A stretch of 64,000 bases of DNA from Strigamia acuminata. Lineage: Eukaryota. A program made the position numbers and the translations under genes. The notes beneath the pieces were generated by a model. That model was not told the origin of the DNA. It saw only the letters and a program-made list of their open reading frames with translations, and made no database searches. The stretch lies in contig OX442314.1 of the NCBI GenBank assembly GCA_949358305.1, positions 2,542,001 to 2,606,000 on the forward strand. The letters are read 5' to 3'. This document shows positions 10,764 to 34,540 of this stretch, in pieces (position 1 is the stretch's first letter; each line of letters opens with the position of its first letter).

Positions 10764-10765
10764 AA

Positions 10766-10776: not shown

Positions 10777-11065
10777 AGGAAGGTTGAACACACATCAGCC
10801 ACATTGAATTGAAGAAAAACGGTATTGAGACCGAAATTTGAGCAGATTCGAGGCGGCGATCGAGAGCAGACACGAGGCGAAAATCGAGAGCAACGCCGCG
10901 CCATCTTGAAGCGCACGATACGAGACGAGAAGCAACTTCAACAAAAGCAGTGACAAACAATTCGAGGTGAATTAAACAATATTGAGATTGTGTCACAGCA
11001 TCGAGACGGAAGAAAAAGCTGAACAATACGTGCAATTCAAACAACGAGACGAGAAACCAACAAAG

Positions 11066-14000
11066 ATGAGCAATACCGGTAATTGGAGTTTGGCAAACAT
11101 TGAGCCATTAAATGATGCGAATTATTTCCTATGGGAATCAAGAGTGGAGGGAATTCTTAGAGCCAAGAAATTGTGGAAAGAAGTAATTGTAGGAGCCGAA
11201 CCGCAACGAGGAGTCCAAGGAGAAGCGGATTTTGCCGCAAAAGAGAAGACCTGGGACGAATGGGACGATAAAAACGCGGCGGCCCACTTCACGATGATCA
11301 GCACAATGACGGCACCACAAGTTTTGAAGTATTCAAACACAAAAGGTGCAAAGGCACTTTGGGATTTGGTAAAAACCAACATGGCGGCGAAAACCCAATA
11401 ATTACAGATGAGAAGTGCCCGCGAGCTGACGCAGCTAAAGATGAACAGCAAAGAAGATGTAGACACCTACATAAACAGAGCCGAAGCCATAATTAACCGC
11501 TGTGCAAAACTTGGCAAACCAATTGACGACTATGAGAGCAAGTTTTATGTGACGAAAGGCTTACGACGAGAATTTGACGCGAATGTGCGCGCAATTGAAG
11601 TGCAGGCGAATTTAGACATGTCAAAAATTCGTGACATACTAAAACTGGAAGAAGGACGAATTTCAACCAGAAAAGAGAGAAAAATGCGACAACAAATGAA
11701 ACCGCACTCAAGACACGTGAGAGAGGGCAGAAACCAAAGCGCACATGTTTCAACTGTGGTCGCGGAGGGCACATGGCGAGAGAGTGCTACAGTGAGGCAA
11801 AATGTTTTAACTGCCAGGAGTTTGGCCACCTATCGAAAGATAGTTCGAAACCAAAGCGAGAGTTTAAAAGTGGCGACTCAAGAGGACGTGGACGAGGCAG
11901 AAGCGGTCAGCGAGGTCGCGGCAGAGGAAAGAGCGAGACGTCAATGATGGCATTTGAAGAAAAGGCGGAATTCACGCTCATGACGTACGAGATGGATGAA
12001 AACACCAATGATGAAGAGACGAATGAAGAAAGCGATTGGGTGTTGGATTCCGGATCGACAAGCCACATGACGGCACTGGATGCAAAACATTTTGATGTAT
12101 TTGACGAGGATGAAAAGAATATCGGAATGGCGAAGAAAGGAAAAAGCATGAAATTGATTGGAATGGGCGAGATTGTGCTCGAACATGACGGGAAAAATTC
12201 CAGATTAAAGAAAGTGTTGTGCGTACCACAAATTGGAAACAATTTGTTGTCAGTATCGAAAATTGTCGATAATGGACTAAAAGTCACATTCTCCAAAACA
12301 AGCGCAACAATTAATGATGAAAATGGAGAACAAGTTATGATGGTGCCAAGAAAAGGAGGAAAAAGACAACAATTGGCACGTGAGATTGGGACATTTAAAT
12401 TACAACACCCTGAGAGAGATGAAAAATGAAGAACTAGCATACGGCATAGAAATTAGCAGCAAAGGTGGTGCCGTGTGTGAACCATGCATCGCGGGAAAGA
12501 TGAAAAAGACGTCGCACAAGTCGGTAACAGATCGCCAATCGTCAAGCATCATGGAATTATGGCACATTGACCTAATTGGACCAATTGGACCCGAATCTCG
12601 AGGAGGCGCAAACTATGTGATGACTGTAGTGGACGATTGGAGCCGGATGTTGATGGTAAAAACATTAAATGCAAAAAGCGACGCGAAGGAGAAGTTAACA
12701 GAACTTATCATTGGGATGGAAAGACAAACTGACAAAAAGCTGAAAAAATTGCGGAGCGACAATGGAGGCGAGTTCTTATCAAAAAGCATGAAGGAATGGA
12801 CAACAAAAAGAAGCATTGAACACCAGCTGACCACAGCATTTAACCCGGCTAGCAATGGCGTCGCGGAACGCGCGAACCGGACAATCATGGAGATGTTGAG
12901 AGCAATTTTGAAAAACTGCAAACTGCCAAAGATTTTTTGGGCAGAATGCGCATCGACAGTGGCACACATCCGCAACCGGTGCAAATCGTCAGTTCATGGA
13001 CGCACACCATTTGAGATATGGTTTGGCAGAAAACCAAATTTAAAATATTTGAGAAGATTTGGATGTATAGCATATGTGCTAATCAAGGATCACAAACGAA
13101 AGAAATTGGATCCCAAGGCGGAAAAAGCAATATTTATTGGCTACTCAAATACAAGGAAGGCATACCGGATTTACCACCCGGAAAGCGATTCGATTAGTGA
13201 AGAAATCGATGTGAAATTTGATGAGAGTAAAATTGGCGCAGATTTGCTGAATGAGGGCATCCAAGTTGATGAAGAGATTGAAACAGTCAAAATCGATCTG
13301 AACTGCGAAGAAAATGAAGATGAAACAGACGATAGCGAGGAAGAACAAAACGAGATAAATGAAGAAGATGAAGCCAATGAACCGGATGACAACACGGAAG
13401 AAAACGACACTGAGGTCGAACGTGACGAACCACCACAGAGGGGGCGACCAGCGGGGGTGACCAGGGAAATGAAATTGGTCGCCGATAAAGTGCAAAGAGA
13501 AGAACACGAGAAGAGACTGGTTGACCAGGGAGCGCGAAGATCTGAGAGAATTAAGACGAAGCAAATGGCATTACTAGTAGAAGAAATCTTAACGCCGAAA
13601 AATTTCCACGAAGCGACAAACTCCCATCACGCGACAGACTGGAAGGCCGCGATGGATGACGAGATGAGCTCGATGAAACAACACGGAGTGTGGAAAATTG
13701 GAAAATTGCCAAAAGGAAAGAAGGCAGTGAAATCCAAGTGGGTTTATAAAGTCAAGTTAAATTCCGAAGGAGAACCGGAAAGATTCCGAGCAAGACTAGT
13801 AGCCACTGGATACTCGCAGAAATTCGGGGACGATTACGAGCTGACCTTTGCCCCGGTCATCAGGATAGAGACACTGAGAATGCTGATCAACGTGGCAGCA
13901 AAAATTAATAGACCATTAAAACAACATGATGTAAAAGCCGCAGCAAGCTGAAAGAGATGATATTCATGATACAGCCAGAAGGATACATTGAAGGAGGAAA

Positions 14001-14573
14001 GGAACATGTGTGCCAATTAATCAAAAGCATTTATGGATTAAAACAGGCAGGGAGATGTTGGTTTGAAACGTTGGACAAAACATTGAAGAGAATTGGATTC
14101 AAACCATCGCCAGAGGACCCATGCCTTTACGTGATTTTTGTTGATGGCAACTTTATGTTCCTAGGCGTATATGTGGACGATGACTTGTCCTTGGCATCCA
14201 CGGACGAATTCGAGACGGAATTAATGTCAAGAATGAAGGAAGAAATTGAGTTCGTGAGCATAGGCAGACTGGAATACATCCTGGGAATCCAAGTTGAGTA
14301 TGGAAATGGAAGAATCAGCATCCACCAAGGCGGATACATTAGACGATTGGTGGAGAGCGAAGGATTGGAGGAATGCAACGCCGCGATAACTCCGGTGAAC
14401 CCCAATCAAAACTTAGATGAATTTGAAGAAAGTGAGAAAGTTGACGCAACACAATACCAGGAACTGCTGGGCAAGATGATGTACCTTGCCACACACACGA
14501 GACCAGACCTGAGTTTCCCGATGAGCCTGTTATCTCAATATAACAAGGACCCACGAATGATCCATTTTACCGC
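11066..14573 (+). pseudogene. gag-pol: Copia gag-pol, 5' part (gag, zinc knuckles, protease, integrase, RT), disrupted
   Basis: LNDANYFLWE gag start; two CCHC knuckles; WVLDSGSTSHM protease; WHxRLGH; integrase core LWHIDL, RSDNGGEF, NGVAERANRT; RT KSIYGLKQA and YVDD. Stop at 11399 and frame breaks near 11690, 12360 and 13945. Confidence 0.93.
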
Positions 14574-15166
14574 TGTGACTGCTATGGTCTCTTCCGGTGT
14601 AGTCAGGGGACTGAGAACACTTGGTAGGGACGCATACTTCACGTAAATGACGGAGACTTCCCACAATATTGGTTGGTTGTCCTTTATTGCGTTGTCTAGG
14701 GGTATGGGGAAACCCGTCACCCGCTGCAGAGGTGCCACGAAGGCACACCGCACCGGCAACCGACCCGCCACACATTGGGTGGGAACCCAATGCGTGGCGT
14801 GGTCGGTTCGACTTAACATTCGTGTCGTACTTACCTACGACCCACGCGTCCACTCATGGAGGCTGTACAACGGTGGGAGCCGTCATACTGAGTATCATCG
14901 TGGTGAATGGTGAGGAGTACAGAGTCAAACCGGGACACTGCTTGTCCCTCCCAGATGAACACCTTCTCCTCTCGGGGAGCTGCTGCAGGCACGTCCTTCT
15001 CAGGCCGTGTCCAACACTCAACTCACTCACACCACTCCCTCCTCACCACACCACTCCACTCCCTCCTCCCTGGGCTAGGTCAACTACCCACGTAGGGGTT
15101 GACCTTTGGGGCCGCACGGTGGTGTGTGGCAGTGCCGCAGGTCACCTAGGTGGCCTGGCGGTCACA
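14574..15166 (-). repeat. 3' LTR of the nested element
   Basis: About 4 mismatches seen versus 43782-44374; minus-strand AATAAA at ~14683-14688; adjacent polypurine tract. Confidence 0.95.
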
Positions 15167-15879
15167 TCTCCCCCCCCAAGAAAAAGGTAGGTCTAAGGGG
15201 CCACACACAACACCGACGGGGACACGCAAGTCGAGGCAGACACAACCACGAAGTCAGTCGAAGACCACAACTTGTCGGGTTACCGGCGCCGACCTTCGGT
15301 GCTGGCGGTCCGAAAACCACTGCACTGTCGGTCCACGATGTTAGCAGCATTGGGCGACAGGAAACACCTCGCCCTAGACTGGCCGAAAACAAAACAAACT
15401 ATTGATGTAATACAATGTAAAAAATAATTCACCGGGCCTGAACGTAACAAGCCCGGGACGAAATCATAAACAAAAAAAAATTAAAAAAAAACGAAAAATA
15501 AAATAAATACGGTAAAACAAAACAAGGATGGGAGAGGCTGGTCAAGCCTCTCATAAAATAATTGAACTAAAGCTATACGTTAAACAACATGAAAATGATA
15601 AAAAAGAAAAAAAAAGAAATAATATATATACAACGACCGGGACCTGACCAAGATCCACAGTCGGGAGGTCCACCGATGGGACGGGAAAAACTCCGGTACC
15701 CGTTTTCGTCGGGCACGTGGGCTTGTGGCGTGGCGTCTCCGTCTCGTCACTTGCTTCCGGCTCGGCGTTCATGTCCCGGGACAGGCATCTCACGGCATGC
15801 TGCTGGGGAAAAAATATTATCGGGACCAGAGGTCCGTCGTTTGCACAATTTCGCGTCCAAGGACGACAGTCGAGGCTTT

Positions 15880-18189
15880 TCACGGCTCCGGCTTGTCGTT
15901 GGACGGTGGTTGCGGCTGAGAGGGGTCTTGCGGCTCCTCCTCAGACTCGGTTGCAACCGCTGCGGGTCCTGCTGGGGCTGGCGAAGTTCTCGCCGCCTCC
16001 AGTACAGACCGTATCGACGGTGGGGGAGGCATTAGTTGCCTGCCCTCCGCCTCCGCCGCTCCTGCTGTAGTTGATGGTGACTGGGGGGGTAGCTGGGGTA
16101 CCTCCTCCGTCGCCGTCGTTTTGACTGTGGCCAAGGCACGTCGCGCCGCCGCTTCCTCTCTCGATGCCGCCACGGATGCAGCGCTACGGGACTTCTTCCC
16201 CTTCCCTTTCTGCTTGCGTGCATCGTGGGTCGATTCGATTAGATCCCAGACGTCGGGGCTAAATTGGTCGGGATAGGCCTTCCGCCTGTGCACGCGTTTC
16301 ATCAGCACCTCTTCGTACGTAGGCGGGGGTGGAGGTGAGTGTGCCGCCAACTCTGGTGGCATCACGATAGGTACAGGCTCGTGGGACGCCGGTACAAACA
16401 TCCGCTGGAAACCATAATTGTTGGCCAGCCTAGGGAGTCCGGCTAGTGTCTCCACGTAGCCCCGGCAGATTGATGCGTCGAAATCCGCGTAGCCCGCCCC
16501 CACCGTCTGTTCCAGTGTCCAAGTCTGGACCACGAACGGGGACGGTAAGTGGAGATACCACGCGTTCATAGCAGTACCGACCGACCACGCGACGATGCGG
16601 ACCGTCTCATACCACCGTATCCTCCGTGCCGCGGCTGTTGCGACAGGGGGAATGTTGAGGATTATCCACATCCTCTGTCGAATCAGGGCGATTGCTCTGG
16701 TCATCCTGATGTCGCTCCCGGCCGCGTCTACAAAGCGCAGGTGAAGTTCCCTCCACCGCTTAGCTTCGGCGACCCAGAGCGCCACCACCTGAGCGTTCGC
16801 ATGCTTGAGGCGTGGGATTGCCATCAGTACCAGCGCCGTGCAGACCACTGGGGCACCAGGCGGTAAGTCAGCGACCTCGAGCGGAACCTGGCCCTCGACG
16901 GGTTCCAAGAACTCCGCTCCTTCGTGCTGTCCAGAGGGGTGTGGTTCCTGGGAAGGTCCCTCGCCTCCTCCGGCAGCTTCTACTCCTGCGTTGACCATCT
17001 CGGGGTCGCCGCACCGCAACAGTTGTGCTTCGAGAGACAAACCCTCCAGCACCGACAATTGCAGCACATCGTCCTCCGAAACAGACAACTCCATCGTCTC
17101 GTCATCTGGTGCTGGCATCTGGGGTTGCACCATTGGCGGTTCGGCGCAAGCGCCGTCCTGCCTCTGGGAAACAACACAGTCTTCCCGCAGGGTAGAAGGT
17201 TCCGACCGTCCCGCGAGATTCATGAGGCTACCCCAAGTGCGATGAGGCAGTCCTCCCGTCCCGTCGAATGCCGCCACGGGGATTCCAAGCGCGAGTGACG
17301 CGCAAGCGATCGCCTGCTCACTACAACCGGCTTCCTCCGTGGGCATCTCGACCATTTGTTCGCCAGGCACTCCGGGAAGGTCCAGAGCGGGTGACACTGC
17401 TGGATCAGCTTGTCCCTCGTCTCCTAACACTTCCGGTTGTTGCACGGGCTCCGATGCGTCGTCAACCACGGGTAGGACGACAACCATAGGAATGGCCACA
17501 ACTTCTGGCTCGACGGCACCGGATCCACATGACTGCCGCGCGACCGGTGGTACGGCAGCAGCTTCAGCCTCGGCCACCGCCTGCCTCGCCGCCTCAGCGG
17601 ACCGCGCCTTCCTCGCATTGTCCTTGATACGACGACGCAGCAGCTTCCCTGCGGACTCGATCTGAACCGCAGTTGCTCGCGGGTAGGACGCCCGCCACTC
17701 CGCCAACGAGGTCTCTAGCCGTACGGTCATCTCTTCCGTCCATTTCGACGGCGCTGGTTCTTGCTTCTGGCGCTTCGGGTTCGGCTGGGCTGGGGCCTCT
17801 GCCGAAGCCGCCCGCCCCGCCTGAACCCTTGGTGCCGAAGGTGCAGAACCCGATGGACCAGGCTGCCCGTCCCGTGCTCTGACAGCTTCCACCGTCAAAC
17901 CACGTGGTAGGAGGGCATGCCCGTGTCGCAACAGATCCTGCGTCCTCCTTTCCCACAAGTCAACGCTCATCCACGATACCATCGAACGGGTGCGGCTCCG
18001 GTCGCCGCCCGGTCGTTGTGAGTGGCGCGCATACCACCTCTGCCTGGGGGTGGAGAAGTGCACCAACCCCATGCCGAGGCAGTTGCCGCACGGTGACTCC
18101 CAACTGCCCGCCGATAGTTCCCAACACTCGCCCGAGCAAACAGGGCAGATGTGCCACTGTTCGCCTCCATCTCCGCCTCCGTTTCCCAA
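15880..18189 (-). CDS. Orphan 769-aa accessory ORF in the env position; probably spliced
   Basis: Long GC-rich open frame; N-terminal CPVC...CGNC; WTEE helical segment; acidic/Pro-rich linker; PPPPPTYEEV; basic NLS-like runs. No ATG at the start, but a U-rich tract ending TGTTTAG lies immediately upstream. Confidence 0.75.
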   Translation of the reverse strand: MGNGGGDGGEQWHICPVCSGECWELSAGSWESPCGNCLGMGLVHFSTPRQRWYARHSQRPGGDRSRTRSMVSWMSVDLWERRTQDLLRHGHALLPRGLTVEAVRARDGQPGPSGSAPSAPRVQAGRAASAEAPAQPNPKRQKQEPAPSKWTEEMTVRLETSLAEWRASYPRATAVQIESAGKLLRRRIKDNARKARSAEAARQAVAEAEAAAVPPVARQSCGSGAVEPEVVAIPMVVVLPVVDDASEPVQQPEVLGDEGQADPAVSPALDLPGVPGEQMVEMPTEEAGCSEQAIACASLALGIPVAAFDGTGGLPHRTWGSLMNLAGRSEPSTLREDCVVSQRQDGACAEPPMVQPQMPAPDDETMELSVSEDDVLQLSVLEGLSLEAQLLRCGDPEMVNAGVEAAGGGEGPSQEPHPSGQHEGAEFLEPVEGQVPLEVADLPPGAPVVCTALVLMAIPRLKHANAQVVALWVAEAKRWRELHLRFVDAAGSDIRMTRAIALIRQRMWIILNIPPVATAAARRIRWYETVRIVAWSVGTAMNAWYLHLPSPFVVQTWTLEQTVGAGYADFDASICRGYVETLAGLPRLANNYGFQRMFVPASHEPVPIVMPPELAAHSPPPPPTYEEVLMKRVHRRKAYPDQFSPDVWDLIESTHDARKQKGKGKKSRSAASVAASREEAAARRALATVKTTATEEVPQLPPQSPSTTAGAAEAEGRQLMPPPPSIRSVLEAARTSPAPAGPAAVATESEEEPQDPSQPQPPSNDKPEP

Positions 18190-20578
18190 ATTCTAAACAA
18201 TAAAACAACAAAAGACAAAATTAATAAATTATACAAAATGAAAAGGGGAAAAAAAAAAACCGGGTTGAGAGTATGATGCAAGGGTTATGAATTTAGGATT
18301 CCGGCACGAGGGGGCGACAAAATCAACCTCCCACGCAAGCACTTGATCACGTGCAAACACATGACGTCAGTGGATGCCACACAATCGTCGAAGACACCGA
18401 GCTGGCGGAAGCCATTTTCGGTGCTCCGGTGATGCAAGCCGAAATAATTTCCTGAATTCGTTAAACCGAATCAGGATGATATAAAATCCTGACCAAAGCG
18501 TGGTGCCTGGTCTAAGAAATGATGGTTGTAAGAATTTCACACACGACAAGGCAAGAGATGGTGACGGCAACGCAAACCGCAACCAACATGGCGGACCGTT
18601 CTGCACAACGGCCCGGCATGTCGGTGAAGTCTGGCGCCTGAATCAGAACCCAATCCAGTCGCAGAAAACCCGAACAAACCATCGATTGTGACAAAAAGGA
18701 TGTCTCGAAAAGAAATACGCGAACGAGCGAAAAAGTGATACACCTTTTCTGCCTGAACGCAAGCGAAAAGAGAAAAGAAATAAAACCAAATAATCTTATT
18801 GAATAATAAAAAAAAATAAATTTAGTTGCGCCGGCTGAGAAAGAAACTCGAGTTCGGGGCAAAATAAACAAAGGAGGGGTTGAAGACTAAAGAAAAGAAC
18901 GAAAAACTCCAAACGGAAGTGGACTTTGATTTCTTCGAGTCGCGTCGCGGCGGCGAGTGATTCGGGAAGCGAACTTCTCGGCTCCTCTTACCGCTGCGAC
19001 AACCCCTCACCGCCCGCTATTGTTTTCCCAGATTGGGGGTCTCAGATCGTGCCGCTGGCCACTCAAGTGACCAGCATACAGGTCATTGACCTCAATTAGG
19101 GACAATAGGAACGAGGGATGCACGAATTCCGAGGGGTTAGGCGTGGGTCACGGTGTAACCTTTGCCAGCTGACTCGCGAATTCGACGCCGATACCCACCC
19201 ATTTCAGAAAGAAAAACCGGGGACACGGCGAATGGAGGCAAAAAACAAAAAAAAAGATACGTAATCAAAAAAAAAGAAAAATAAAACAAAAAAAAAAAAA
19301 TTAAAACTGAATTGAAGAAGGAAAACTAATCGAGAGAACTTTTCACAGAAACATCGGGAAAAAGAAGAAAGAGAAGAGAAAAGAAGTGATAGAAAATTCG
19401 AGACGGAAGACGGATGGCAAAACGAAACCAATCGCATCAGGTATCACGAAGCGCTTCGTGAGAGAAAACGCCGAAATTTCAGGTTTTCTTCACACAAAAC
19501 ACTTCTCAAAATGTTTCCCGAACACTAAATGGTCGAAACCACAAGTGTTTCAGTGAATTAATTCGATCGCGGCGGGTTAGAATCAACTTAACCTGCCTGC
19601 GTCCCTAGCGAGAAGCGGCGGTCGAAACTGCCTGCTCGATCGCTAAGTTGCACGTAATATCGGGGTCGGGGTACGAAAGAAAGCAATCGGTCACGGGTTT
19701 TATCGAGAAAAAGGGCCACAGTAAATGATGCAAAAAGAAAATAAATTTGTGTCTTACCCTCATATCGCAACTCAAAAACTTTTTCTCAAACACGAACACA
19801 AGCAAAAGTCAGCTGATGCTGTATGATCGCCCTCTCGAAAACAAGTGACACACGGGGACTATGTCCAGAAACAAGAAACCTCGAGTCTAAACAGAGAACA
19901 ATCCTCGACCCGTGACCTGTGATTGGGTCCCACGACACCCTCACCCCTCCAATTGGTGCAATAACTAATTCCCAATCTAAAGAGACAATCTTTCTCAGAA
20001 AGCGCAGGAAAAACACCACGAAACAATATTATTTTATTGCCACGACAATTTTCCGAATTTTTTAGCGAAAAACTCCCACGATCCCCGGGCAGAGAAATAA
20101 AACCTGCTTAAAAATCGCGGCTGCGGTGCTGAGACCGTCGCCATGGTTACGCTCCTCCGCGAGATTTCGTGACGTCACATGAACGCCACGATTCTCATCG
20201 GTGGAGACCGCAACATGACCGCTGAAACTGGCCACGGAAAGCAGGTAATTAAACAAACTTCTCCGACCAATCTCAGTGACTTAATCAATCAATTCCAACA
20301 GTGTTATCGGTCCAGTGACCAACACTGATCGATCGGCGACCATCGAGACGAATCACGGGCCTGCAAATCGATTTTTTCAACTTCACCGTGCAACAGGTGA
20401 CCTTTACAAAAACGGGTGAGTTAGATAAAAAATAAAAATCATCCATTTCAATAAGTCACCGTTACAGGGTAACTTACGGGTTCAATTCTGTGTTTGTCGG
20501 TGTGACAATGACGAGGATTCGCCGTGTCTACGCCTGACGAACGTTCTTCACTTTAAATCCAGCCGAAACAAGGAATTT

Positions 20579-21709
20579 CTAAGTTCCTGGCCAGAAAAAA
20601 ATGCGTCGTAGTCTTTTCACCATGTCGGCCGCGTTATCCTGCATGTAGCGAGGGTGCAATCGAATGACGTCGAGGCAACGGTCAGCTAGCGGTGCAGGCA
20701 TCAGGATTTTTACGTCCAAGCCTTGCTCCGCCCTGGTTAGTGACGATTCGGGTGAGAACGGGGTATTGATACACAATTCTCCGCACTCGCCGAACGTACA
20801 ATCGGACATGTATTGCGCCATGGATGGTGGGATTTGGGCCAGAAGACTGTCGTCATCTCGGTCCTCGTCTAACCATCTCATGATCGCGCTACAGTCGGCG
20901 TCTGCCCGCTGGTACTGCCTAATCTCATCGTAAGACATGATCGTACCAGTGAGGCTTTCTGAAACGAGAGTGTGGGCAAGCGCGGAAGCAGCTTTTTCTT
21001 CGCGTGAGGCCGCCAATGTCGTATCCTCGTCATCTAGGCCCACACGAGAAAGAGCGACTGCGATCCGATCGTCCACATCTCTCCTAAATTTAAAAGAGAA
21101 TCTCACCTGTTGGAGCTGCATTGCCCTCCGCACCAGGCGACCTGACGTGTTGATTGAGTGTAATAACCAAAACAACGCCACGCAACCTGTTTCGATAACG
21201 AATTTTGAATACGCGATGAAAGACCGAAAGGAAGCGACTGCCTGCAGAACTGCCAGACAATCGAGTTCCGGCGGGCTTAACGCTGTCTCGGCGCCTTGCA
21301 GCGCACGACTCGCGTAAGCAACAGGTCTCCTGACCCCCAGATGATCGATCTGCGTGAGGACTGCACCGAGCCCGGTCAAACTTGCGGCAGCTTGAATGAC
21401 GAAGATCTTGCCGAAATCAGGCATCGGCTGCACGATCCCACGCGAAAGATGATCCTTGAAAAATTCGAATACTCCCTGACACTCGTTGGACCAATTCCAT
21501 TCCGCACCCACGGCGAGTAGGTCATCCAGCGGGTTTGACAGATGTTCCAGTCCCTCGATCGGCGGTGTGTCCCCTCCAAACATGCCGAGGAAACGTCGCA
21601 GCTGGGCGACATTCGCCGGTCGCGGGTAGTCCACGATCGCCTGGACACGGCGTTCGTTCGGTCGAAAACCTGCGGGAGTCATAGAATAGCCAAGAAGTAG
21701 ATACCACAC
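20579..21709 (-). CDS. pol: RT connection, catalytically substituted RNase H, and a truncated start of the integrase Zn-binding region
   Basis: P.NVAQLRRFLGM, GLGAVLTQ, RPVAYASRAL and ALSR retained; ORF ends at RLRRIFFWPGT*; one frameshift relative to the upstream ORF near 21705. Confidence 0.85.
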   Translation of the reverse strand: MWYLLLGYSMTPAGFRPNERRVQAIVDYPRPANVAQLRRFLGMFGGDTPPIEGLEHLSNPLDDLLAVGAEWNWSNECQGVFEFFKDHLSRGIVQPMPDFGKIFVIQAAASLTGLGAVLTQIDHLGVRRPVAYASRALQGAETALSPPELDCLAVLQAVASFRSFIAYSKFVIETGCVALFWLLHSINTSGRLVRRAMQLQQVRFSFKFRRDVDDRIAVALSRVGLDDEDTTLAASREEKAASALAHTLVSESLTGTIMSYDEIRQYQRADADCSAIMRWLDEDRDDDSLLAQIPPSMAQYMSDCTFGECGELCINTPFSPESSLTRAEQGLDVKILMPAPLADRCLDVIRLHPRYMQDNAADMVKRLRRIFFWPGT

Positions 21710-23474
21710 AAGATCCAGACGGGCTAGCGGTCAAGCAAAATTTGCTCAGCCTGCTCAGCACGTCGGACAGGTGTGTCAGGTGTCGCTCAAAAGTTTTGCT
21801 GAACACCACGATCGAGTCCAGGTAGGGCAACGCCCACTTAAACTTCGATTCGCCGAGCACCTTCCCCATCAGCCGTTGGAATGCCACAGGGGTATTTAAC
21901 AATCCGTAGGGCAATTTCACGAACTGAAAGGTATCTTGAGGTGTGTAAAACGCCGTCTTAGGTCTGTCCTTGGGCGCAATCCTTACCTGAAAGCAGCCCA
22001 TAGCCAGATCCAAAGTGGAGAAAAACACACTCCCTTCTAAACAGGCCAAAATCATGGGAATAGACGGTACTGGGTACGTGTCTCTCTCCGTGACTGAATT
22101 GAGCTGTCTAAAATCGATGCAAGCGTCAAAGGTTCCGTCAGGTAATATACTTATCACCGGCTGGTTCCTATAATCACTGACACCTCTTTCTATCTCACCC
22201 TTTTTCAGCGCGCATCTCACCAAACGGCGCAGAGCTTTCGCTTCAGCAGGGGATGTCGGTTTGATATCGCACGAGAAGGGTGGCGCATTACCCGTGGGGA
22301 TCCGAAGTTTTACCGTCGGATGACAGCCTCCTATCTCGCTGAAGGTGTGGCTGAACTCGTCGAGCACACGAGCCAATCTCATCTTCCGCATATCTTCTAT
22401 TTTGCAGTCTTCCAACAAATCTAATTGTTTGGATGATAGTGACAGTGCGGCCGTGTCGACGCCGTATTCCAGCGTGACCCTTGCCCACTTGTCAACATCT
22501 GCACCACCTTCGTCTAGCTGTCTAGGCCGAGGAGCGAAGGGAAACGTCATCCCTGGATCATCGGCTTTAAACCAATCGTTCCGGGAAATGCGAATTACAA
22601 TGCCATATTCCCTCAACCAACTACACCCCAAAAGGATAAAGCTAGAAGAAGAAGGTAACACTGCAAACCGTAACCAATCTTCTCCCGTCTGCCAGCTGAC
22701 GTACAATTTCACCGTCCCCAAGGGACTGGTTACTCTGTCGCCTGTCATAACCCTAACGAAATCATTACAGGGTTCAATCGAGGCTGTCAGTCCGTATTTC
22801 TCCGCCGCGGCACTACTCATATACTGCCCTGAAGCAGCAGTATCCATAAGTGCCACCGCTTCACGGTCGGAAAAGCGAATGTCGACGAACGGGAGAGGGA
22901 AATCTCTGCCCAGTCCGGCGACACTCACTGTATCCCAGACCGCTCCGACGGCTAAGCCTACGAAACAGACTTGGTCGGGCGGTGAGCCGTCCGCTACGAC
23001 GCCTTCATCCGCCTCAATCAATTCCAGCGGCTGGGGTGGTGAGATCCGGTCGTAGAGTTCGGCGGGCTGAACCACACCGTTCTCCGCAACCAGGTCCACC
23101 TCCTCCGGCTCGCTTTCAACGTCCGAATCGTCCGATGCAGCGGCCCGAGTTATCGTCGACCTGCTGGACAATTCCATGATACGTTTACTGAAATCCAATT
23201 GCTGCGACACCGCGGATCTTGCCCAAGCCTCCGCCATGTCGCTGGCCTCATTCCGCGCACGAACAGCTGCTTTACGCGCCTGTTCTGCAGCAAAATTCGA
23301 CCAAATTGCTTCGCCATGTGCAGCGGCGGCATCAAGTGCTGCCAGCTGCTTTTCGCGTTGAAATAACCGAATGAGTTCCATGACATCGTCCTGCGTCTTA
23401 ATGTCGCATGGATCGACGTCGCAAAGAACAGCCAGTTCTCTGGCCCAAGCTGAATCGAGATCCTTGCTTGCCAT
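21522..23474 (-). CDS. pol: N-terminal helical domain, aspartic-protease-like domain and RT-like domain, with variant catalytic motifs
   Basis: ALMDTAAS, ILLGCSWL, CIDFRQLN, LDLAMGCFQV, KTAF, LPYGLLNTP and YLDS. Confidence 0.88.
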   Translation of the reverse strand: MASKDLDSAWARELAVLCDVDPCDIKTQDDVMELIRLFQREKQLAALDAAAAHGEAIWSNFAAEQARKAAVRARNEASDMAEAWARSAVSQQLDFSKRIMELSSRSTITRAAASDDSDVESEPEEVDLVAENGVVQPAELYDRISPPQPLELIEADEGVVADGSPPDQVCFVGLAVGAVWDTVSVAGLGRDFPLPFVDIRFSDREAVALMDTAASGQYMSSAAAEKYGLTASIEPCNDFVRVMTGDRVTSPLGTVKLYVSWQTGEDWLRFAVLPSSSSFILLGCSWLREYGIVIRISRNDWFKADDPGMTFPFAPRPRQLDEGGADVDKWARVTLEYGVDTAALSLSSKQLDLLEDCKIEDMRKMRLARVLDEFSHTFSEIGGCHPTVKLRIPTGNAPPFSCDIKPTSPAEAKALRRLVRCALKKGEIERGVSDYRNQPVISILPDGTFDACIDFRQLNSVTERDTYPVPSIPMILACLEGSVFFSTLDLAMGCFQVRIAPKDRPKTAFYTPQDTFQFVKLPYGLLNTPVAFQRLMGKVLGESKFKWALPYLDSIVVFSKTFERHLTHLSDVLSRLSKFCLTASPSGSCVVSTSWLFYDSRRFSTERTPCPGDRGLPATGECRPAATFPRHVWRGHTADRGTGTSVKPAG

Positions 23475-24751
23475 AAGATGCTATTTCTTTGCAACCAGTG
23501 GTAACCAAGTGTGTGCAGTCAAGACCACGCACAGGCAAGGAGTGAGAAGGAATCCAAGGACACTTTCACTTCCTACAGCCAAACCAAAGTCAGGGGTACC
23601 TTGACCAATTACAGCCGCCTACAACTAGGTCGACCATAATTATTTTACAAAAGATCTCAGCATCCCTTTCAAAGGAATGTCCAACCACTGGCCATGTGTT
23701 GGACCTTCGAGCGCTTTTCCAGTGCTTCAAGGATCCTTGATTCTATTTTTAGCTAATTGGCAACTGAGCATCTGGTGAAGACCAAAGTCGCGCACCGGGG
23801 TGCCGTCCTGTTCTTTCGACAGAGTCCATGCCCTTTATGCTAAAATTGATTGGACAGAGGAGTGGCGGGTCAATGGTCGAATCCCTGACCTCGTCATCAA
23901 CCTGTTACTGCATCCTGTGTACCTTCAAAATAAAATATGATAAATTACAATGAAAGTCCTTTTATTGAAAACAATAAAACATTAAGTTTTGGTTCATCTC
24001 TCCGCCCCAAAAAATAAAATTAGCGGTTATATTTTGGTTCTTAATCCACGCCCCAAAATAAAAAATTAGCGAACACCTTTCCGGCATTTATCCACGCCCC
24101 AGAAGATAGAAATGGGCGACTGGAAGTTCTCTGACACTCCCAAACTAACAAAACAATGCATGCTTCGTCTTTCCCCTCGTGTTCCAAATTATTCGCGCCA
24201 GAACCAAGTAGAAAAAACTGCGTATATCGATTTTTTGTGGCATTTTATCCTCGCGCCCCACAGCTTCGATGCTAAGGCGTACGTTTTCCTTTGCACTGGT
24301 GTACACGTCTACCACCAGTTTTAACCTCTGCTGAAAACGCTAAAATCGCGTGTTTTAGGATTCCTCCGATATTGCCTGCTCCTGCACCGAAATCACACCC
24401 AAAACACCATCAAGATCGCGATAATCCTGATGAGGCAAAAAATTGTGACTCAGTCGCCTCAGACTAAGAGTGAAGGGAAATTGGCGAACCGAGTCTGAGT
24501 CAGATTGGAGAATATTGCAACTGAACACGGTCCAGCGCCAAGGAAAGTTAGGTCCAATCCCCGGGAGCCTCACTCCTTTCCAACCCGGATATGAAATTAG
24601 AGTAGAAATAGGATAAAAGAAGGGAACAAGAAAAATGTGGTGTGTTTCACAAAATTTGGGAAAAGGGATCCACACACAGCACATTGAAAAAATAAAAGTT
24701 TGAAAGATGTTGGGCTGGATTCACAGTCTTCGTTTGAAGCTGTTAGCCACC

Positions 24752-26742
24752 TGTTGTTGGAAAATTTACTCCATTGGATCAAGCACCAAAGGTGCAATCC
24801 TACATTTCTGGCTCAAACTTAGAGGCATGAGGAAGTGGTTCGAGGGCGGGAGAATGAGGATGTTTAGGTTAGGTTAGGTTTAGGTTTAGGATAGGCAGCG
24901 CCATCTACTAACAAAATTGGCGAGTAAAAGTGGCCCATTTGGTCCGACGACAAAATGAACAAGATGGCGGTGAGTCATACTAGGTCGCGAGCAACCTTGG
25001 AGGGAAAAACGTCTTTTGACCTTTGACCTTGACCTTTGACCTTTGACCTTTTTAAGCGGCCCATTTGACCTTTGACCTTTGACCTTTGACCTTTGTGGTG
25101 GAAAATTTGACCTTTGACCTTTGACCTTTGAGGTGGAAAATTTGGCATCTGAAGGTGGAGAGTTTAACCATTGACCTGTATGACTCACTTCCTGTTTTGG
25201 AATTTTCTAGAATTTTTATTATCTCTTATTTCTTCCTGGATTGTCCTTGATTGGAATTTTCTAGAATTTTTATTATCTCTTATTTCTTCCTGGATTGTCC
25301 TTGATTGGAATTTTCTAGAATTTTTATTATCTCTTATTTCTTCCTGGATTGACCTGGATTGGAATTTTCTAGAATTTTTATTATCTCTTATTTCTTCCTG
25401 GATTGACCTTGTTTGGAATTTTCTAGAATGTTCTGTGATGACTCATCACTTCCGGTTTTGTGGGTATATAAGGAGTGACAAATCAGAATTTTTTCAGTTG
25501 ATCAACGACTTTGGACCCTGTCGGACTGGGGTACCTATGCCCAAATTTTTGATTTTTTTTTCAAAAAAACTTAGAAAATTTTGAAAAAAAAACTTAGAAC
25601 AATTTACAATAAAGCGATCTTAGGACAAGAAAGGACACAGATGGATTTCAGGAGCATAAAAAAATGATGCTTACCCTTCAATTTTTTTTTCACAAATGAA
25701 GAGATATTTAATTGCGTGATGTTATAAGGTACTAAACCGGTTCAAACTGGTTTCTAATTGAATTTTTTTAAAGGTCACATCACGGGTATATAATGAGTGA
25801 CAAATCAGAATTTTTTCAGTTGATCAACGACTTTGGACCCTGTCGGACTGGGGTACCTATGCCCAAATTTTTGATTTTTTTTCAAAAAAACTTAGAAAAT
25901 TTTGAAAAAAAACTTAGAACAATTTACAACAAAGCGATCTTAGAACAAGAAAGGACACAGATGGATTTCAGGAGCATAAAAAAATGATGCTTACCCTTCA
26001 ATTTTTTTTTCACAAATGAATAGATATTTAATTGCGTGATGTTATAAGGTACCAAACCGGTTCAAACTGGTTTCTAATTGAATTTTCTTAAAGGTCACAT
26101 CACGGGTATATAATGAGTGACAAATCAGAATTTTTTCAGTTGATCAACAACCTTGGACCCTGAAGGAGTGGGGGACCTATGCTCAAATTTTCAAAATTTT
26201 TCAAAAAAACTTACAAAAATTTTGAAAAAAAACTTTGAAAAATTTACAACAAAGCGATCTTAGGACAAGATAGGACCAGATAGGACAAGACAGGACAAGA
26301 AAAGGCAAGATAGGACAAGACAGGACAAGATAGGACAAGAAAAGGCAAGATACGACAAGACAGGACAAGAAAAGGCAAGACAGGACAAGACAGGACCAGA
26401 TAGGACCAGATAGGACAAGACAGGACAAGAAAAAGGCAAGACAGGACAAGACGGGACAAGAAAAGACAAGATAGGACAAGATTTTCAAGGTAAGCAAGAG
26501 TCAGAAGTGACTGAAGTGACGGAACTAATGATGTCGGCCTGTTTATGGCACGGCTGACTTAGCTCTGGCATTCAGTTGATGTGTGTTAATTGAGCAGTTG
26601 ATGATTTGTGGCTGCTGGTTGAATTGTTTGCACCCCCCCTCGAGTGGTGTTTGTTTGTTTGTTTGTTTGATCAGTCAGGCTAACAAAGTCGGCCTGTTTA
26701 TGGCACGGCTGGCTTAGCTCTGGCATCATGCTTAGTGTTTGT
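24752..26742. repeat. Polinton left TIR (about 2.0 kb, composite)
   Basis: Outer ~170 bp and inner ~600 bp are reverse complements of the right end; contains a TGACCTT array, 54-bp and ~320-bp tandem units, and a GGACAAGA microsatellite. Confidence 0.9.
25200..25500 (+). promoter_or_regulatory. Putative stress-inducible promoter: 5 HSEs, AP-1, ETS, TATA and Inr
   Basis: GAAttTTCtaGAA at 25200, 25254, 25308, 25362 and 25416; TGACTCA 25439; CACTTCCGG 25447; TATATAA 25465; TCAGTT with its A at 25496. Confidence 0.65.
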
Positions 26743-26806
26743 TTAATTTATTTTATTTCTTAAATTATTTTTATATAAAAAAATGAAATCCATTTAGATT
26801 CGCTCT

Positions 26807-29800
26807 GTGCTTAAGATGAATAGATACAAAGTCAAGAAATGTGTAGAGTTTTTAAAAGGAAAAAGAGAAAGTGGACAACTATCTAAGGATTTTAAGTTAC
26901 ACATCAAGTTGGAACAACTCTTGGCAAAATGCCGAGAATATGATGATTTTGTGAACATTGAGCCTCGGCCGTATTACCTTTTCAAAAATATCTTTGACGG
27001 ACAAGTGCTTGATTACATTGTCGAATTCGACGAAAGGATTTTTGACATAGAAGACGTGATGAAAGACGCTACTCCAAATATCCGTGCATTGGCAGCAGAA
27101 GTTGCAGCCAGCATGAATTCGTGCAAAGTGAGCGTTATGATGCTATTGAGATATCGGCATTCCCTGAGGACGACGACTGATCAACATTATTGGTACCGGG
27201 CCGATCCGTTCGTGATGCATTCGGACGATGTTGACCACATTCTGGATTCAGCTGCGAAACAACTGGCCATACAAAATGCCGAATTTGTCGAAACTCACGA
27301 CTATTTATATTACCTTTGTGTGGACGAGATTAAAATTGGTTTTGGTGCTTTACACCAGAAAGGTGGATGGTATAAAGATGTTCCGTCATTTCCGTTGAGT
27401 TTGAACAACGATTTACCGGCCGTCATTTGCAATAAGAAAGCCGTGTTAACATTTAAAATTGAGTTGCAAAAGTCTTTTGTTTGGGCCGTTCTTGCATCTT
27501 TACATCCTGTAGCCAATAATGCTGAACGCATAATTAATTACTTGAAGTATGAGCACGAATTGAACTTGCAAGGCTTTGAATTTCCGTTGACTTACAGAAA
27601 CGTAGAAAAATTCCAGTTGCAGAATCCCGATATCGAAGTGACTATTTATTTTTGGGACAGCAATCATGTGCAAAGATATGTGACCGTTCACAGAAACAGG
27701 AAACATCACGTCGATCTATTCTTCTACGGAAACAACTGCTACGGACATGTGAGGAATCTAAAACGTTTGCTCGGATATTTTCCGTGTCATTACTGCGACA
27801 ACCAATTCAAGAGCATTGTGGGTAGAGACAAACACTTGACAGTATTCCACTCCGTTCCCGAAGAAGAAGAATCGTCATATCAGGAACTGGATGAACATCT
27901 GCGCAGCAAAAAGGCAGTGGTAAATGTCCAGAACTCGGATCAGAAAAGTTTTTTGTGGTCCATATTGGCTGCCTTGTATCCGGCACCCGATAATGTATGC
28001 AGAACGGGTTATTACGTACAGTTTATGGACAAACTCAATCTCGAAGGGCTAGTTTTTCCTGTGGGGGCGAAAGAAGTGCTTACGTTCGAAAGACGAAATG
28101 AAAGTTTGAACATTAATGTATTTGCTTTGCTGCCCACGTCACGAATTGTTCCGATAAAAGTGAATATTCAGACGAACCGCCTTACCACTATTAACCTACT
28201 GAAGAAACGGAATCATTACATGTGGATCAAGGATTTCTCACGACTCATGAGCGTCAGCGATGGCAACAAGCGGTATTATTGCATGAATTGTATGAACGGG
28301 TATTCCAGCGCCAAAGTGCTAGTTAAACATAAACATTACTGCGGAAAAAACACTCCTTCCGCCACTAAATGTCCTAAAGAAGGAACAATCTGTACGTTCA
28401 AGAGTGAGAAAAAAAAATATCCTTTACCGTACGTTTGCTACGCTGATTTCGAAGCATTCTTAGTGCCTGAAGTGGAGACCGAACCCACTTTACATTCGGA
28501 CACCATTAATTCTCACGTTCCGTGTGGTTATTCTTTTAAAGTGGTGTGCACGGAGAACGAAGCTTATTCCAGACCGTTACAGCTGTACAGAGGTCCGGAT
28601 GCCGTCGATCATTTTTTGCAATCGTTGCGTGCAGAAATTAAAGCCGTGGTTTGTCAATTTTCCCAATTGGAAAGACAATTCGATACCAAAATGATGACTC
28701 CACTTGAATGGAACGCATTTAGAAATGCAACAACTTGTTTCTTATGCGATGGCGAGTTCTCCAAAGCTGAAGGATGGACTAAAGTCTTGGATCACAACCA
28801 TTTCACTGGAAAGTTTCGCGGAGCCGCACATGGCAAATGTAACCTCAACTACCATTGGCGGAGATCTGTGCCGGTAGTTTTCCATAATGGGAAAAGGTAT
28901 GATTTTCATTTAATATTCCCACATTTGACCGTCGAGACAGAAAAAGTGAACGTCATCGCCGAAAACTCGGAATTATACAAATCTTTCACGCTGAGAATCA
29001 ATACCAGCGATGATCCAAAAGTGCCCCGTAAAGTTACGTTAAAATTCTTGGATAGTTTCCAATTTCTCGCGAGCAGTTTATCCAATTTGGCTAAAAATTT
29101 AGAGAAGTCGCAGTTTGCTGTATTTCGAAGCGAGTTTAAGGGCGAGGAAATTGATTTTCTTTTGAGGAAAGGAGTATACCCGTACAAATATATGACTGGT
29201 TGGTCAAAATTTCTAGAAGATAAACTTCCGCCGATAGAAGAATTTGAGAACATATCCGCCGATGAATACCAATATGCTCAGTTAGTTTGGAATACGTTAG
29301 GGATTAAAAACATGGGCGAATATCACGATTTGTATCTGAAGACTGATACTCTGTTGTTGGCGGATATATTCGAGCAGTTTAGGAAAATGTGTTTGAATCA
29401 CTACAAGCTGGACCCCTGTCATTATATCACGTTTCCGAGTCTGTCTTGGGACGCAGCACTGCTCATCACCAAAGTTAAATTGGAGCTTCTGTCTGATCCA
29501 GATATGTACATGTTTGTCGAACAAGGAATAAGAGGCGGTGTTGCCACAATCAGTCAACGCTATGCCAAAGCTAATAACCCTCTTCTGGCATCGGGATACG
29601 ATTGTGAGAAACCAGAGAGTTACATCGTCTATTTGGATGCGAATTCCATGTATTCCTGGGCAATGAGCAAACCGTTACCCGTTGGCAACTTTGCCTTCGA
29701 CGATAATTTAGCCGAATGGACGCAAGAAAGGATTTTGAAAATGGGAGAGAACGATACGATGGGATGCATCTTGGAAGTGGATTTGGGATATCCGCAAGAA

Positions 29801-30829
29801 CTGCACTTGGCCCACAATTGTCTGCCTTTGGCTCCGGAAATGATACGTTCAGCGGACGACACTTGTCCCAGATTAATCCCGCATTTGCAAGGTCGTTGTA
29901 ATTACATTCTGCATTACAGAGCTCTGCAATTGTACTTGTCCCTGGGCATGACGTTGATGAAAATAAAAAAAGTGCTGACGTTTGAGCAAAAACCATGGCT
30001 GGCCAAGTATATCGAACTGAATATTGAGAAACGGAAGTCCGCTACCAGTGATTTTGAGCAGGAATTAGCGAAATTAGCTAACAATTCGGTCTTTGGAAAA
30101 ACCTTGCAGGACGTGAGGAAATATAGACAATTTTATCTGGTGAATAATCAGAAAGACTGGGATAAACACCTCAACCACGCCGGTTACAAAGGATATAAAG
30201 CCTTGAATAGTAATCTGATGTTGGTTGAACGTCGTAAGCTGGAATTGACGTTAGACAAACCTATTTACAGCGGATTAACTATCCTGGACTTGTCTAAATG
30301 CTTGCTATATGACTTTCATTACAACGTCATGAAAAAAAAATTCTCAGACAAGCTGAGATTGCTGATGACGGATACGGATAGTTTGATGTATGAAATAGAA
30401 GCTCCGTCGGTCTACTCGTTCTTCAGAGAAGAAATACCAGAAGTGATGGATCTGTCTAATTACGACCCACCTGATGGCAGAAACAGGCGTGTCATAGGAT
30501 GCTTCAAAGACGAGACTGCCGGCGAGCCGATAGAAGAGTTTGTAGGGCTAAGAGCCAAATGTTACGCTTATAACGTGAACGGGAAAACGAGCATGCGATG
30601 TAAAGGCATAAAGAAAGCCGTCGTGGAGCAAGAGCTGGACTTGGAGGCGTACAAGAAGATATTGTTCGGAGAACGGGAGGCCCACAGATTGAAATTTGAA
30701 ACGATCAAATCAAAACTGCACGTTCTCACAACGGTCGAGGTGGACAAATTGGCATTGTCAGCGAAAGACAAGAAGCGAGTGATATTAGATGATTGTATTC
30801 ATACCAAAGCTTATGGTTATGTTGAGTAA
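26807..30829 (+). CDS. pPolB: Protein-primed family B DNA polymerase (TP-like N-terminus, two vOTU-like domains, C2H2 fingers, exonuclease with EndoVII-like insert, polymerase); likely ATG at 26816
   Basis: Exonuclease motifs YADFEA, FHNGKRYD, YLKTD; polymerase motifs YLDANSMY, KLANNSVFGK, TDTDS; insert DHNHFTGKFRGAAHGKCN. Confidence 0.96.
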   Translation: MLKMNRYKVKKCVEFLKGKRESGQLSKDFKLHIKLEQLLAKCREYDDFVNIEPRPYYLFKNIFDGQVLDYIVEFDERIFDIEDVMKDATPNIRALAAEVAASMNSCKVSVMMLLRYRHSLRTTTDQHYWYRADPFVMHSDDVDHILDSAAKQLAIQNAEFVETHDYLYYLCVDEIKIGFGALHQKGGWYKDVPSFPLSLNNDLPAVICNKKAVLTFKIELQKSFVWAVLASLHPVANNAERIINYLKYEHELNLQGFEFPLTYRNVEKFQLQNPDIEVTIYFWDSNHVQRYVTVHRNRKHHVDLFFYGNNCYGHVRNLKRLLGYFPCHYCDNQFKSIVGRDKHLTVFHSVPEEEESSYQELDEHLRSKKAVVNVQNSDQKSFLWSILAALYPAPDNVCRTGYYVQFMDKLNLEGLVFPVGAKEVLTFERRNESLNINVFALLPTSRIVPIKVNIQTNRLTTINLLKKRNHYMWIKDFSRLMSVSDGNKRYYCMNCMNGYSSAKVLVKHKHYCGKNTPSATKCPKEGTICTFKSEKKKYPLPYVCYADFEAFLVPEVETEPTLHSDTINSHVPCGYSFKVVCTENEAYSRPLQLYRGPDAVDHFLQSLRAEIKAVVCQFSQLERQFDTKMMTPLEWNAFRNATTCFLCDGEFSKAEGWTKVLDHNHFTGKFRGAAHGKCNLNYHWRRSVPVVFHNGKRYDFHLIFPHLTVETEKVNVIAENSELYKSFTLRINTSDDPKVPRKVTLKFLDSFQFLASSLSNLAKNLEKSQFAVFRSEFKGEEIDFLLRKGVYPYKYMTGWSKFLEDKLPPIEEFENISADEYQYAQLVWNTLGIKNMGEYHDLYLKTDTLLLADIFEQFRKMCLNHYKLDPCHYITFPSLSWDAALLITKVKLELLSDPDMYMFVEQGIRGGVATISQRYAKANNPLLASGYDCEKPESYIVYLDANSMYSWAMSKPLPVGNFAFDDNLAEWTQERILKMGENDTMGCILEVDLGYPQELHLAHNCLPLAPEMIRSADDTCPRLIPHLQGRCNYILHYRALQLYLSLGMTLMKIKKVLTFEQKPWLAKYIELNIEKRKSATSDFEQELAKLANNSVFGKTLQDVRKYRQFYLVNNQKDWDKHLNHAGYKGYKALNSNLMLVERRKLELTLDKPIYSGLTILDLSKCLLYDFHYNVMKKKFSDKLRLLMTDTDSLMYEIEAPSVYSFFREEIPEVMDLSNYDPPDGRNRRVIGCFKDETAGEPIEEFVGLRAKCYAYNVNGKTSMRCKGIKKAVVEQELDLEAYKKILFGEREAHRLKFETIKSKLHVLTTVEVDKLALSAKDKKRVILDDCIHTKAYGYVE

Positions 30830-30833
30830 AATG

Positions 30834-32174
30834 TTAATCATTAAACAAATTAAAGTGAACAAACACTTGATACGTTAGTGGTATTTTACCAACTTCTTCT
30901 GCTTGCCCTATAACCAAGAGCGTTTCTCTAGCATTTATTTTTACCGGAGGTTCGCAAACATGATTCCAGAAAAACTTAGTGGCATCTGCAAGGAGGTCAA
31001 TGTCAGCAATCTCAACAAACTCAAAGTCATCCGCCAAAGAGAAATAACCAATTACTATGTTTCTAATGTGAACTTCTGGATATACTTCAGCTGAATGCAT
31101 GTTGTGCGACAAAACATTTATTTGTGTAATTTCACATCTTTTAAATGTTGTAAATTCTGATGTTTCTTTATCATCATAAGAGAAAGTTACTCCTCCTTTC
31201 TCGTTGACTGGTTGATAATTTTCAAATTTCACAATATATTTTTCAACTTGTCTGATGTGCTCTAGTTCTGCATTCACTTCATGCATTGCTGTAATTTGCA
31301 CATCATCTTGTAACCTCTGTTCATCCGCATTAATCTGTATTGTCTGTTTGATGTGTTCTATTTCTGTAGCCATTTCAATCTTATATGCATCTAGCATTGC
31401 TTTAACTTGCTCATCATCTTGTAAACTCTGTTTCTGCTCTGTTTCTGAGATTATTTTAGCCTTATATGTATCTAGCATTGCTTTAACTCGCTCATCATCT
31501 TGTAAACTCTGTTTAATATGTACGATTTCTGCAGCCATTTCGGCCTTATGTGTATCTAGCATTGCTTTAACTCGCTCATCATCCTGCAAACTCTGTTTGT
31601 TGTGCTCTATTTCCGCAATTATTTCAGCCTCATATGTTTCTATCATTGCTTTAACTCGCTCATCATCCTGTAAACTCTGTTTGATGCGTTCTATTTCTGC
31701 AGTCATTTCAGCCTTATGTGCATCTATGCTCGCTTGAATTTGCACATCATCCTGTAAACTCTGTTTGATGTGCTCTATTTCTGCAGTCATTTCAGCCTTA
31801 ATTTGTCCATCATCCTGTAAACTCTGTTTGATTTGCTCTATTTCGTCAGCTATTTCTGTCTTATGTGCATCTATGTTTGCTTTAACTCGCACATCGTGCT
31901 CTAAACTCTGTTTAATATGATCGTCAACTCGAGATTTCATATCATCCATAAGCGTAGCAGTGCCTGCAGCTGCCGGGTCTGGTATTCCGACGTTAAAATC
32001 TTTTTTTAGTTGAGCGATATCGTTTCTGTGGCCGAACACCATTCGCCTAATCTGCTCTTGTTCGTCATGCGTTAAATTACTTCCGTCTCGTTTGGCAATT
32101 TTGCGTGGGGTCAGTCCAAATCTATGCACTGGATTTAAGTGGAAGTCGTCTCTCGCCTTATTAATGCTCCCCAT
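30834..32174 (-). CDS. Coiled-coil repeat protein with a beta-rich C-terminal domain (fibre-like)
   Basis: ATG at 32174 after an A-run; seven 21-28-aa KQSLQDD repeats; C-terminal ~130 aa rich in V/I/F. Confidence 0.7.
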   Translation of the reverse strand: MGSINKARDDFHLNPVHRFGLTPRKIAKRDGSNLTHDEQEQIRRMVFGHRNDIAQLKKDFNVGIPDPAAAGTATLMDDMKSRVDDHIKQSLEHDVRVKANIDAHKTEIADEIEQIKQSLQDDGQIKAEMTAEIEHIKQSLQDDVQIQASIDAHKAEMTAEIERIKQSLQDDERVKAMIETYEAEIIAEIEHNKQSLQDDERVKAMLDTHKAEMAAEIVHIKQSLQDDERVKAMLDTYKAKIISETEQKQSLQDDEQVKAMLDAYKIEMATEIEHIKQTIQINADEQRLQDDVQITAMHEVNAELEHIRQVEKYIVKFENYQPVNEKGGVTFSYDDKETSEFTTFKRCEITQINVLSHNMHSAEVYPEVHIRNIVIGYFSLADDFEFVEIADIDLLADATKFFWNHVCEPPVKINARETLLVIGQAEEVGKIPLTYQVFVHFNLFND

Positions 32175-32989: not shown

Positions 32990-33008
32990 CTCTTATTTTT
33001 TTATAACT

Positions 33009-34530: not shown

Positions 34531-34540
34531 TCTTATTTTT

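Follow-up and report, generated by a model that had tools for sequence, protein, structure and literature searches.

Why should a recently moved long terminal repeat (LTR) retrotransposon keep an almost unbroken Pol reading frame whose enzymes have lost most of their catalytic residues? This question is raised by a locus of Strigamia acuminata, which lies in the 64,000-nucleotide window analysed here (assembly GCA_949358305.1, contig OX442314.1, positions 2,542,001 to 2,606,000 of the forward strand). The window carries three elements nested in one another, in which an LTR element is inserted in the pol of a Copia element and itself houses a Maverick/Polinton. The LTR element is young and of Gypsy lineage, has neither a recognisable gag nor an integrase core, and has lost most of its Pol catalytic residues; it is likely to have moved in trans, with the enzymes of an active relative. 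Its first long open reading frame (ORF1) may encode a pseudo-Pol that selection preserves as a folded protein without catalytic function, which would co-assemble with the particle of a helper element, a reading to which, taken as a whole, we would assign a probability of about 0.45.

The LTRs of this element (593 bp each, with TG..CA ends) differ by four substitutions and no indels, and the 4-bp target-site duplication (TSD) is CCGC; a previous sequence-only reading of the same DNA had already reported about four differences and an intact TSD. They stand 29.2 kb apart because a 17.3-kb Maverick occupies the leader, and without it the element has a net size of about 12.5 kb. This Maverick is a passenger outside the design of the LTR element. 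The earlier picture left out a second ORF of 770 codons (ORF2, 18192-15880), while the description centred on ORF1 (23474-20579) stands. A sequence resembling a primer-binding site (PBS) just inside 43781 and a polypurine tract (15167-15177) place the element on the minus strand, and both long ORFs are in the sense orientation. The element shares with Ty3/Gypsy retrotransposons the LTR, PBS and polypurine-tract layout, the 4-bp TSD, the order of protease, reverse transcriptase (RT), RNase H and integrase (the last only as an N-terminal remnant) and the placement of its RT in trees (support 99/96). Unlike autonomous members, it has no recognisable gag and no integrase core, has lost catalytic residues and possesses an extra 3' ORF.

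ORF1 comprises about 960 codons and, as had been claimed, has no internal stop and a single frame break. Frame A starts from an ATG at 23474 and runs through the protease and the RT palm, while frame B (21730-20579) covers the thumb and RNase H and extends into the integrase zinc region; Pfam and PDB searches recovered protease, RT and RNase H domains, arranged as in Gypsy elements. The break is placed at 21725-21695, where ORF1 has 31 nt in place of the 14 residues (42 nt) seen in all 30 intact references. The ORF had been said to end at the start of the integrase zinc region; its stop does fall in that region, but the alignment to intact Pols extends to 20585, into the middle of the region and short of its CxxC half. 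Searches with 159 Pol-type proteins detected no integrase core and no gag remnant elsewhere in the element. The N-terminus of about 110 residues, described earlier as helical and standing in the place of gag, showed no similarity to the Gag of a neighbouring Gypsy or to 184 proteins and had no homologue in Atlas. An AlphaFold model of ORF1, with a mean predicted local distance difference test (pLDDT) score of 69.6, has a long helix at its N-terminus, then a retropepsin fold and an RT palm, and matches Ty3 RT at a root-mean-square deviation of 2.7.

The substituted motifs, DTAA in the protease, YLDS in place of YxDD in RT and four altered RNase H acids, were all found where the sequence-only reading had placed them (Table 1), whereas its conclusion of catalytic loss in all three enzymes was only partly borne out. 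In the protease, the catalytic Asp is kept, but three other conserved positions are lost. These are the Gly that follows the catalytic Asp-Thr (seen in 24 of 26 filled reference rows), a Ser four positions further on, and the second-motif Asp (25 of 28 rows). Two of the three RT Asps are also kept. None of the four RNase H acids is unchanged (codons at 21388, 21262, 21187 and 21058), although one substitution, from Glu to Asp, is conservative. Beyond the catalytic residues, ORF1 has lost the Lys and Arg of the fingers and the YYRRF-type motif of the thumb, which we take to be contacts for nucleotides and nucleic acid. The retained Asps of protease and RT could speak for a residual enzyme function, most plausibly that of the protease, with RT-RNase H merely carried along. 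We consider this very improbable, given the three changed protease positions and an RT-RNase H region whose gapless alignment such a function would leave unexplained.

As judged from LTR divergence, about 10 substitutions are expected in ORF1 since insertion, and because this is far below the number of its departures from intact Pols, ORF1 was already defective when the element moved, in line with the movement in trans proposed before. The frame break is plausibly a single private deletion acquired since insertion, and we infer from the one copy that it is a lesion of this copy. Assembly noise is an unlikely source of it, since the 4,063 codons of the Maverick are unbroken and assembly indels are therefore rare here.

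For the analysis of decay and selection, in which all inferences rest on one copy that is itself broken, 47 intact RT-RNase H segments were taken from 45 of the 159 proteins, and 30 were left after removing those more than 80% alike. At the columns conserved in at least 95% of these 30 references, ORF1 departs at 12 of 41 and keeps 29, while the intact references each depart at 0-5 of 39-45 such columns. The catalytic acids are preferentially affected, with 5 of 7 lost versus 7 of 34 other near-invariant columns (p=0.016); if the Lys and Arg of the fingers are included, which were picked after having been seen, the counts are 7 of 9 versus 5 of 32 (p=0.001). When a neutral codon model is fitted to the departures at columns with at least 85% conservation, its four settings lead one to expect 8.8-16.7 stops across the 954 codons, and none is observed. 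If the terminal stop and the break are each taken as a lesion, P is still about 0.007 (hand Poisson calculation at 8.8). At least two base changes are needed for 10 of the 31 departures at these columns, compared with 2.6-3.5 under neutrality, which indicates that released sites have drifted for long, that the true neutral distance is larger and that more stops would be expected (21-31 at 0.3-0.6 substitutions per site). Outside the break, no in-frame indel separates ORF1 from the references over about 450 aligned RT-RNase H residues, and 30 of 43 changed hydrophobic columns are still hydrophobic, versus a neutral 18-21 (standard deviation 3.2). The host Copia, which was used as a dating bound and as a decay control, displays the opposite pattern, with one stop, three frame changes and all catalytic motifs kept.

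Both the open frame and the enrichment of catalytic-site loss are therefore more than chance, and selection on ORF1 after the loss of catalysis is likely, because no stop is seen where 9-17 are predicted, only one indel is present and the Copia decayed the other way. It had been argued that the pattern reflects targeted active-site loss and not random decay. Randomness is indeed hard to reconcile with these counts, but "targeted" can equally be read as release from selection at the catalytic sites. Ordinary decay of a once autonomous Gypsy, or hypermutation, with the frame left open by chance, would agree with the frame break, the truncated integrase and the single copy seen, and yet it is the least credible of the alternatives, as it has to accommodate the missing stops, the contrary behaviour of the Copia and the small number of substitutions expected since insertion. 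Hypermutation by editing, tried separately, fits only 5 of 31 departures as A>G or 3 of 31 as G>A and was rejected.

Several points weigh against a pseudo-Pol maintained for its protein. Element identity, taken relative to reference identity, differs little between conservation classes (ratio about 0.55-0.8), and where columns are at least 85% conserved the substitutions show no excess of conservative changes over neutrality (z 0.1-1.1), owing to which the signal of protein-level selection on ORF1 is weak. The retention of hydrophobicity partly reflects change in an active ancestor, as even the nearest references are only about 38% identical over RT-RNase H, and the AlphaFold model is driven by intact homologues and is no proof that this particular sequence folds. 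Protein and contig searches returned no close relative of ORF1, and the evidence is the sequence of the one broken copy. With the thumb and fingers contacts lost, a grip of the pseudo-Pol on RNA through the RT cleft is probably to be discounted, which weakens the earlier suggestion of an RNA-binding adaptor.

The same near-uniform loss, together with the neutral-like BLOSUM scores at the most conserved columns, would be natural if the frame were held open for RNA-level reasons, such as escape from nonsense-mediated decay or translation-coupled routing to packaging sites, with the protein itself hardly mattering. Such an explanation accounts for the absence of stops, and RNA surveillance might well be relevant to a transcript in which the ORF1 stop lies 2.4 kb upstream of a splice-acceptor-like site. 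It nevertheless seems unlikely, because in-frame indels should then have built up, because 27 of 34 non-catalytic near-invariant residues persist on a branch twice as long as those of its sisters, and because catalytic sites were preferentially lost.

If the pseudo-Pol is indeed a selected structural protein, it would be translated from the genomic RNA of the element itself, and its protease, RT-RNase H and integrase N-terminal folds could dimerise with the Pol of a helper in the manner of an inactive p51-like subunit. The N-terminal helix might anchor the protein, and helper particles would in this way take up the element's RNA in cis. There is precedent for RT dimers in which one subunit is inactive and structural, namely HIV-1 p51 and Ty3 RT subunit B (PMC8387031). 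In contrast to ORF1, these subunits share a gene with their active partner, and RNase H activity, for which the acids are lost in ORF1, is provided by Ty3 subunit B. The fullest version of this proposal is a satellite retrotransposon whose entire Pol became a pseudo-enzyme scaffold that plugs into a helper Gypsy particle or RT dimer to copy its own RNA, and which makes a second, spliced protein (possibly a relocated and highly diverged capsid, or an export or anti-silencing factor) that may share the helical N-terminus of ORF1 through alternative splicing. In this detail the proposal is tentative, and we would sooner doubt it than accept it.

A Pol that lost its catalytic and nucleic-acid contacts and kept its fold would also suit a poison subunit. 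The selected copy could then be a master locus beneficial to the host, whose dominant-negative or decoy Pol holds active Gypsy elements in check in an Fv1- or RTL1-like co-option, with the present copy an occasional by-product moved in trans. RTL1, a domesticated Gypsy-type gene of mammals, offers a precedent, as its RT and RNase H are described as probably inactive yet conserved in structure (PMC10516033); the combination of a protease with such domains is shared by ORF1, here as judged by sequence only. However, RTL1 is fixed as a gene of its host and includes a capsid domain, whereas the present element has young LTRs, a TSD and a recent move. We regard co-option as unlikely too, since the LTRs, PBS-like site and polypurine tract are all kept in a young copy, and a poison subunit would hamper the element's own copying. 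Co-opted genes usually lose these signals.

Non-autonomous retroelements offer further comparisons. Large retrotransposon derivatives (LARDs) are defined by an internal region without retroelement coding capacity. Like the present element, which keeps its cis signals, lacks working enzymes by its sequence and moved recently, LARDs are described as moving in trans with replaced interiors (PMC6431247), but they replace the coding region, whereas here two long ORFs are present and a Pol-shaped one is retained. HeT-A is likewise a protein-coding non-autonomous retroelement that moves in trans, keeping its own gag without pol (PMC5443660), and it differs in being a non-LTR element and in having kept gag instead of a Pol-shaped ORF. 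For ORF2, the closest analogy is CERV of Cer1 in C. elegans, an orphan protein made from a spliced mRNA of an LTR element, which has a C4 cysteine region and a nuclear localisation signal (NLS) and is needed for export of the genomic RNA (PMC10309623). ORF2 is comparable to it, by analogy, in its acceptor-like site, C4 motif and basic patches, and the two cases differ in that Cer1 keeps its gag and that splicing of ORF2 is only predicted. ORF2 could be a spliced nuclear accessory protein acting in RNA export or anti-silencing.

The 770 codons of ORF2 contain no stop, although its composition predicts 21-23. The frame opens exactly at a TTTAG that follows a long pyrimidine tract and ranks second by a crude score among 242 YAG sites in the 3' part. 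Splicing probably supplies the start, because the first in-frame ATG is only codon 41, past most of a CxxC...CxxC motif at the beginning of the ORF, although an out-of-frame ATG occurs about 20 nt beyond the acceptor-like site. The predicted protein has NLS-like basic patches and extended tracts rich in Ala, Pro and Glu, is predicted to be helical at about aa 450-640 and has a PPxY at aa 623. A phase-0 donor-like site at 22928, just before the protease, would join aa 1-182 of ORF1 in frame to ORF2 via 18193, which is only a lead because donor-like GTRAG sites occur in ORF1 at about chance frequency.

ORF2 found no match in protein searches, Atlas, PDB sequences, Pfam, or metagenome and viral contigs, apart from one weak PHROG match (E 0.25). 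In contrast to the env-bearing, errantivirus-like Gypsy elements, it matched no envelope family in Pfam and has neither a hydrophobic stretch near its C-terminus nor a membrane anchor, its best 19-residue hydropathy (1.85) falling in a stretch that contains Pro and Glu. Residues 486-629 align weakly and collinearly to the capsid region of the neighbouring Gypsy (E 0.18), with a pairwise score of P 0.10 under BLOSUM62 and P 0.001 under BLOSUM45 for a region that was chosen afterwards. A relocated capsid is nonetheless rather improbable. In hmmsearch, equally high scores were reached by 6 of 1000 shuffles and by several unrelated ORFs; hhalign against a profile of 98 capsid segments gave a probability of 0.3%; and the mean scores versus these 98 segments were equalled by 7 of 27 control windows (BLOSUM62) and 3 of 27 (BLOSUM45). 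Matches of the helical region to four-helix bundles were dismissed as meaningless, as the single-sequence model is poor (pLDDT 38.9).

Protein searches with frame A of ORF1 returned only ordinary Pols at 25-45% identity (nine matches in one search, the best 150 of 66,076 in another), none of which covered the N-terminus, and no match was found among metagenome contigs. In the trees, ORF1 groups with the neighbouring Gypsy and with tick elements, its clade-mates being P0131 from Ornithodoros, the P0111 cluster from Rhipicephalus, P0039, P0079 and P0088. The branch of ORF1 is the longest in the thumb/RNase H tree (2.24 versus 0.76-1.06 for the clade-mates) and in the fingers/palm tree (2.21). 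The LTR of the neighbouring Gypsy also starts with TGTGACC and its PBS is similar, but no LTR sequence is shared, and this neighbour therefore illustrates the kind of helper needed, not the helper itself. As a separate observation, the coding strand of ORF1 (20582-23474) contains 22-23% A, whereas the pol of the neighbouring Gypsy and the Copia reach 32-38%, an A-rich bias that ORF1 has lost.

Table 1. Positions of the nested elements, their parts and the neighbouring Gypsy in the window.
Feature	Position	Strand	Remarks
5' LTR	43782..44374	-	593 bp; TGTGACC...GTCACA on minus strand; AATAAA at LTR position 479
PBS-like sequence	43761..43779	-	two substitutions and one extra base relative to the neighbouring Gypsy PBS; presumably tRNA-Pro type
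Leader, part 1	42079..43760	-	T-rich; longest ORF at most 128 codons; no Pol or Gag similarity
Maverick/Polinton	24752..42078	.	17.3 kb, in leader; long terminal inverted repeats (TIRs); 6-bp TSD GCCACC
Leader, part 2	23475..24745	-	
ORF1 N-terminus, aa 1-111	23142..23474	-	short helix and one long predicted helix
Protease domain	22566..22889	-	retropepsin fold; DTAA at 22844-22833
RT fingers/palm	21726..22427	-	YLDS at 21824-21813; fingers Lys and Arg lost
Single frame break	21695..21725	-	31 nt versus 42 in intact relatives
RT thumb and RNase H	21044..21694	-	gapless versus references; YYRRF-type thumb motif and four RNase H acids changed
Linker and N-terminal half of integrase zinc region	20579..21043	-	followed by stop
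T-rich spacer	18193..20578	-	ends in long pyrimidine tract and TTTAG at 18193, splice-acceptor-like
ORF2	15880..18192	-	770 codons, stop to stop
Polypurine tract	15167..15177	-	adjoins 3' LTR
3' LTR	14574..15166	-	TSD CCGC at 14570-14573 and 44375-44378
Host Copia, interrupted	10556..45283	+	208-bp LTRs at 10556 and 45076, 1 difference; TSD ATAAC
Neighbouring Gypsy, same RT clade	58539..64000	+	LTR start TGTGACC; similar PBS

The other occupants of the window deserve a brief description. The Maverick looks complete, with a PolB of 1343 aa, a double jelly-roll major capsid protein, an A32-type ATPase, a protease and an integrase with a chromodomain, between complex, repeat-rich TIRs. Two small protease-like ORFs lie at 32135-32647 and 38649+, and an ORF at 37295 is presumably phospholipase-A2-like. 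The Copia has many gag-pol lesions for LTRs that differ at 1 of 208 positions, and for this reason it may itself have been copied in trans. The neighbouring Gypsy has an LTR-like region of about 1 kb and a PBS at about 59554, and it extends beyond the window; its gag contains one in-frame TAG (60214-60216), due to mutation or read-through, and its pol, in another frame than gag, has an intact DSG. Three tandem C2H2 zinc-finger genes with 84-bp repeat units and a partly duplicated block occupy 47250-57400, and the fragments at 1390-4883 have a presumed resemblance to a DEG/ENaC channel gene. No Rfam family and no tRNA gene was found.

No description of a mobile LTR element with a conserved pseudo-Pol was found in literature listings, which mostly did not cover subscription journals and Repbase Reports, and repeat-database entries could hold such families. 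According to the usual view, non-autonomous LTR elements discard pol. If the pseudo-Pol proposed here is indeed selected, Pol would have a selectable non-catalytic role, be it in particle entry, cis preference or interference, and the element would serve as a natural reagent for how parasitic retroelements gain access to the particle of a helper. It would also provide a route by which RTL1-like pseudo-enzymes could arise in a selfish element before their domestication by a host.

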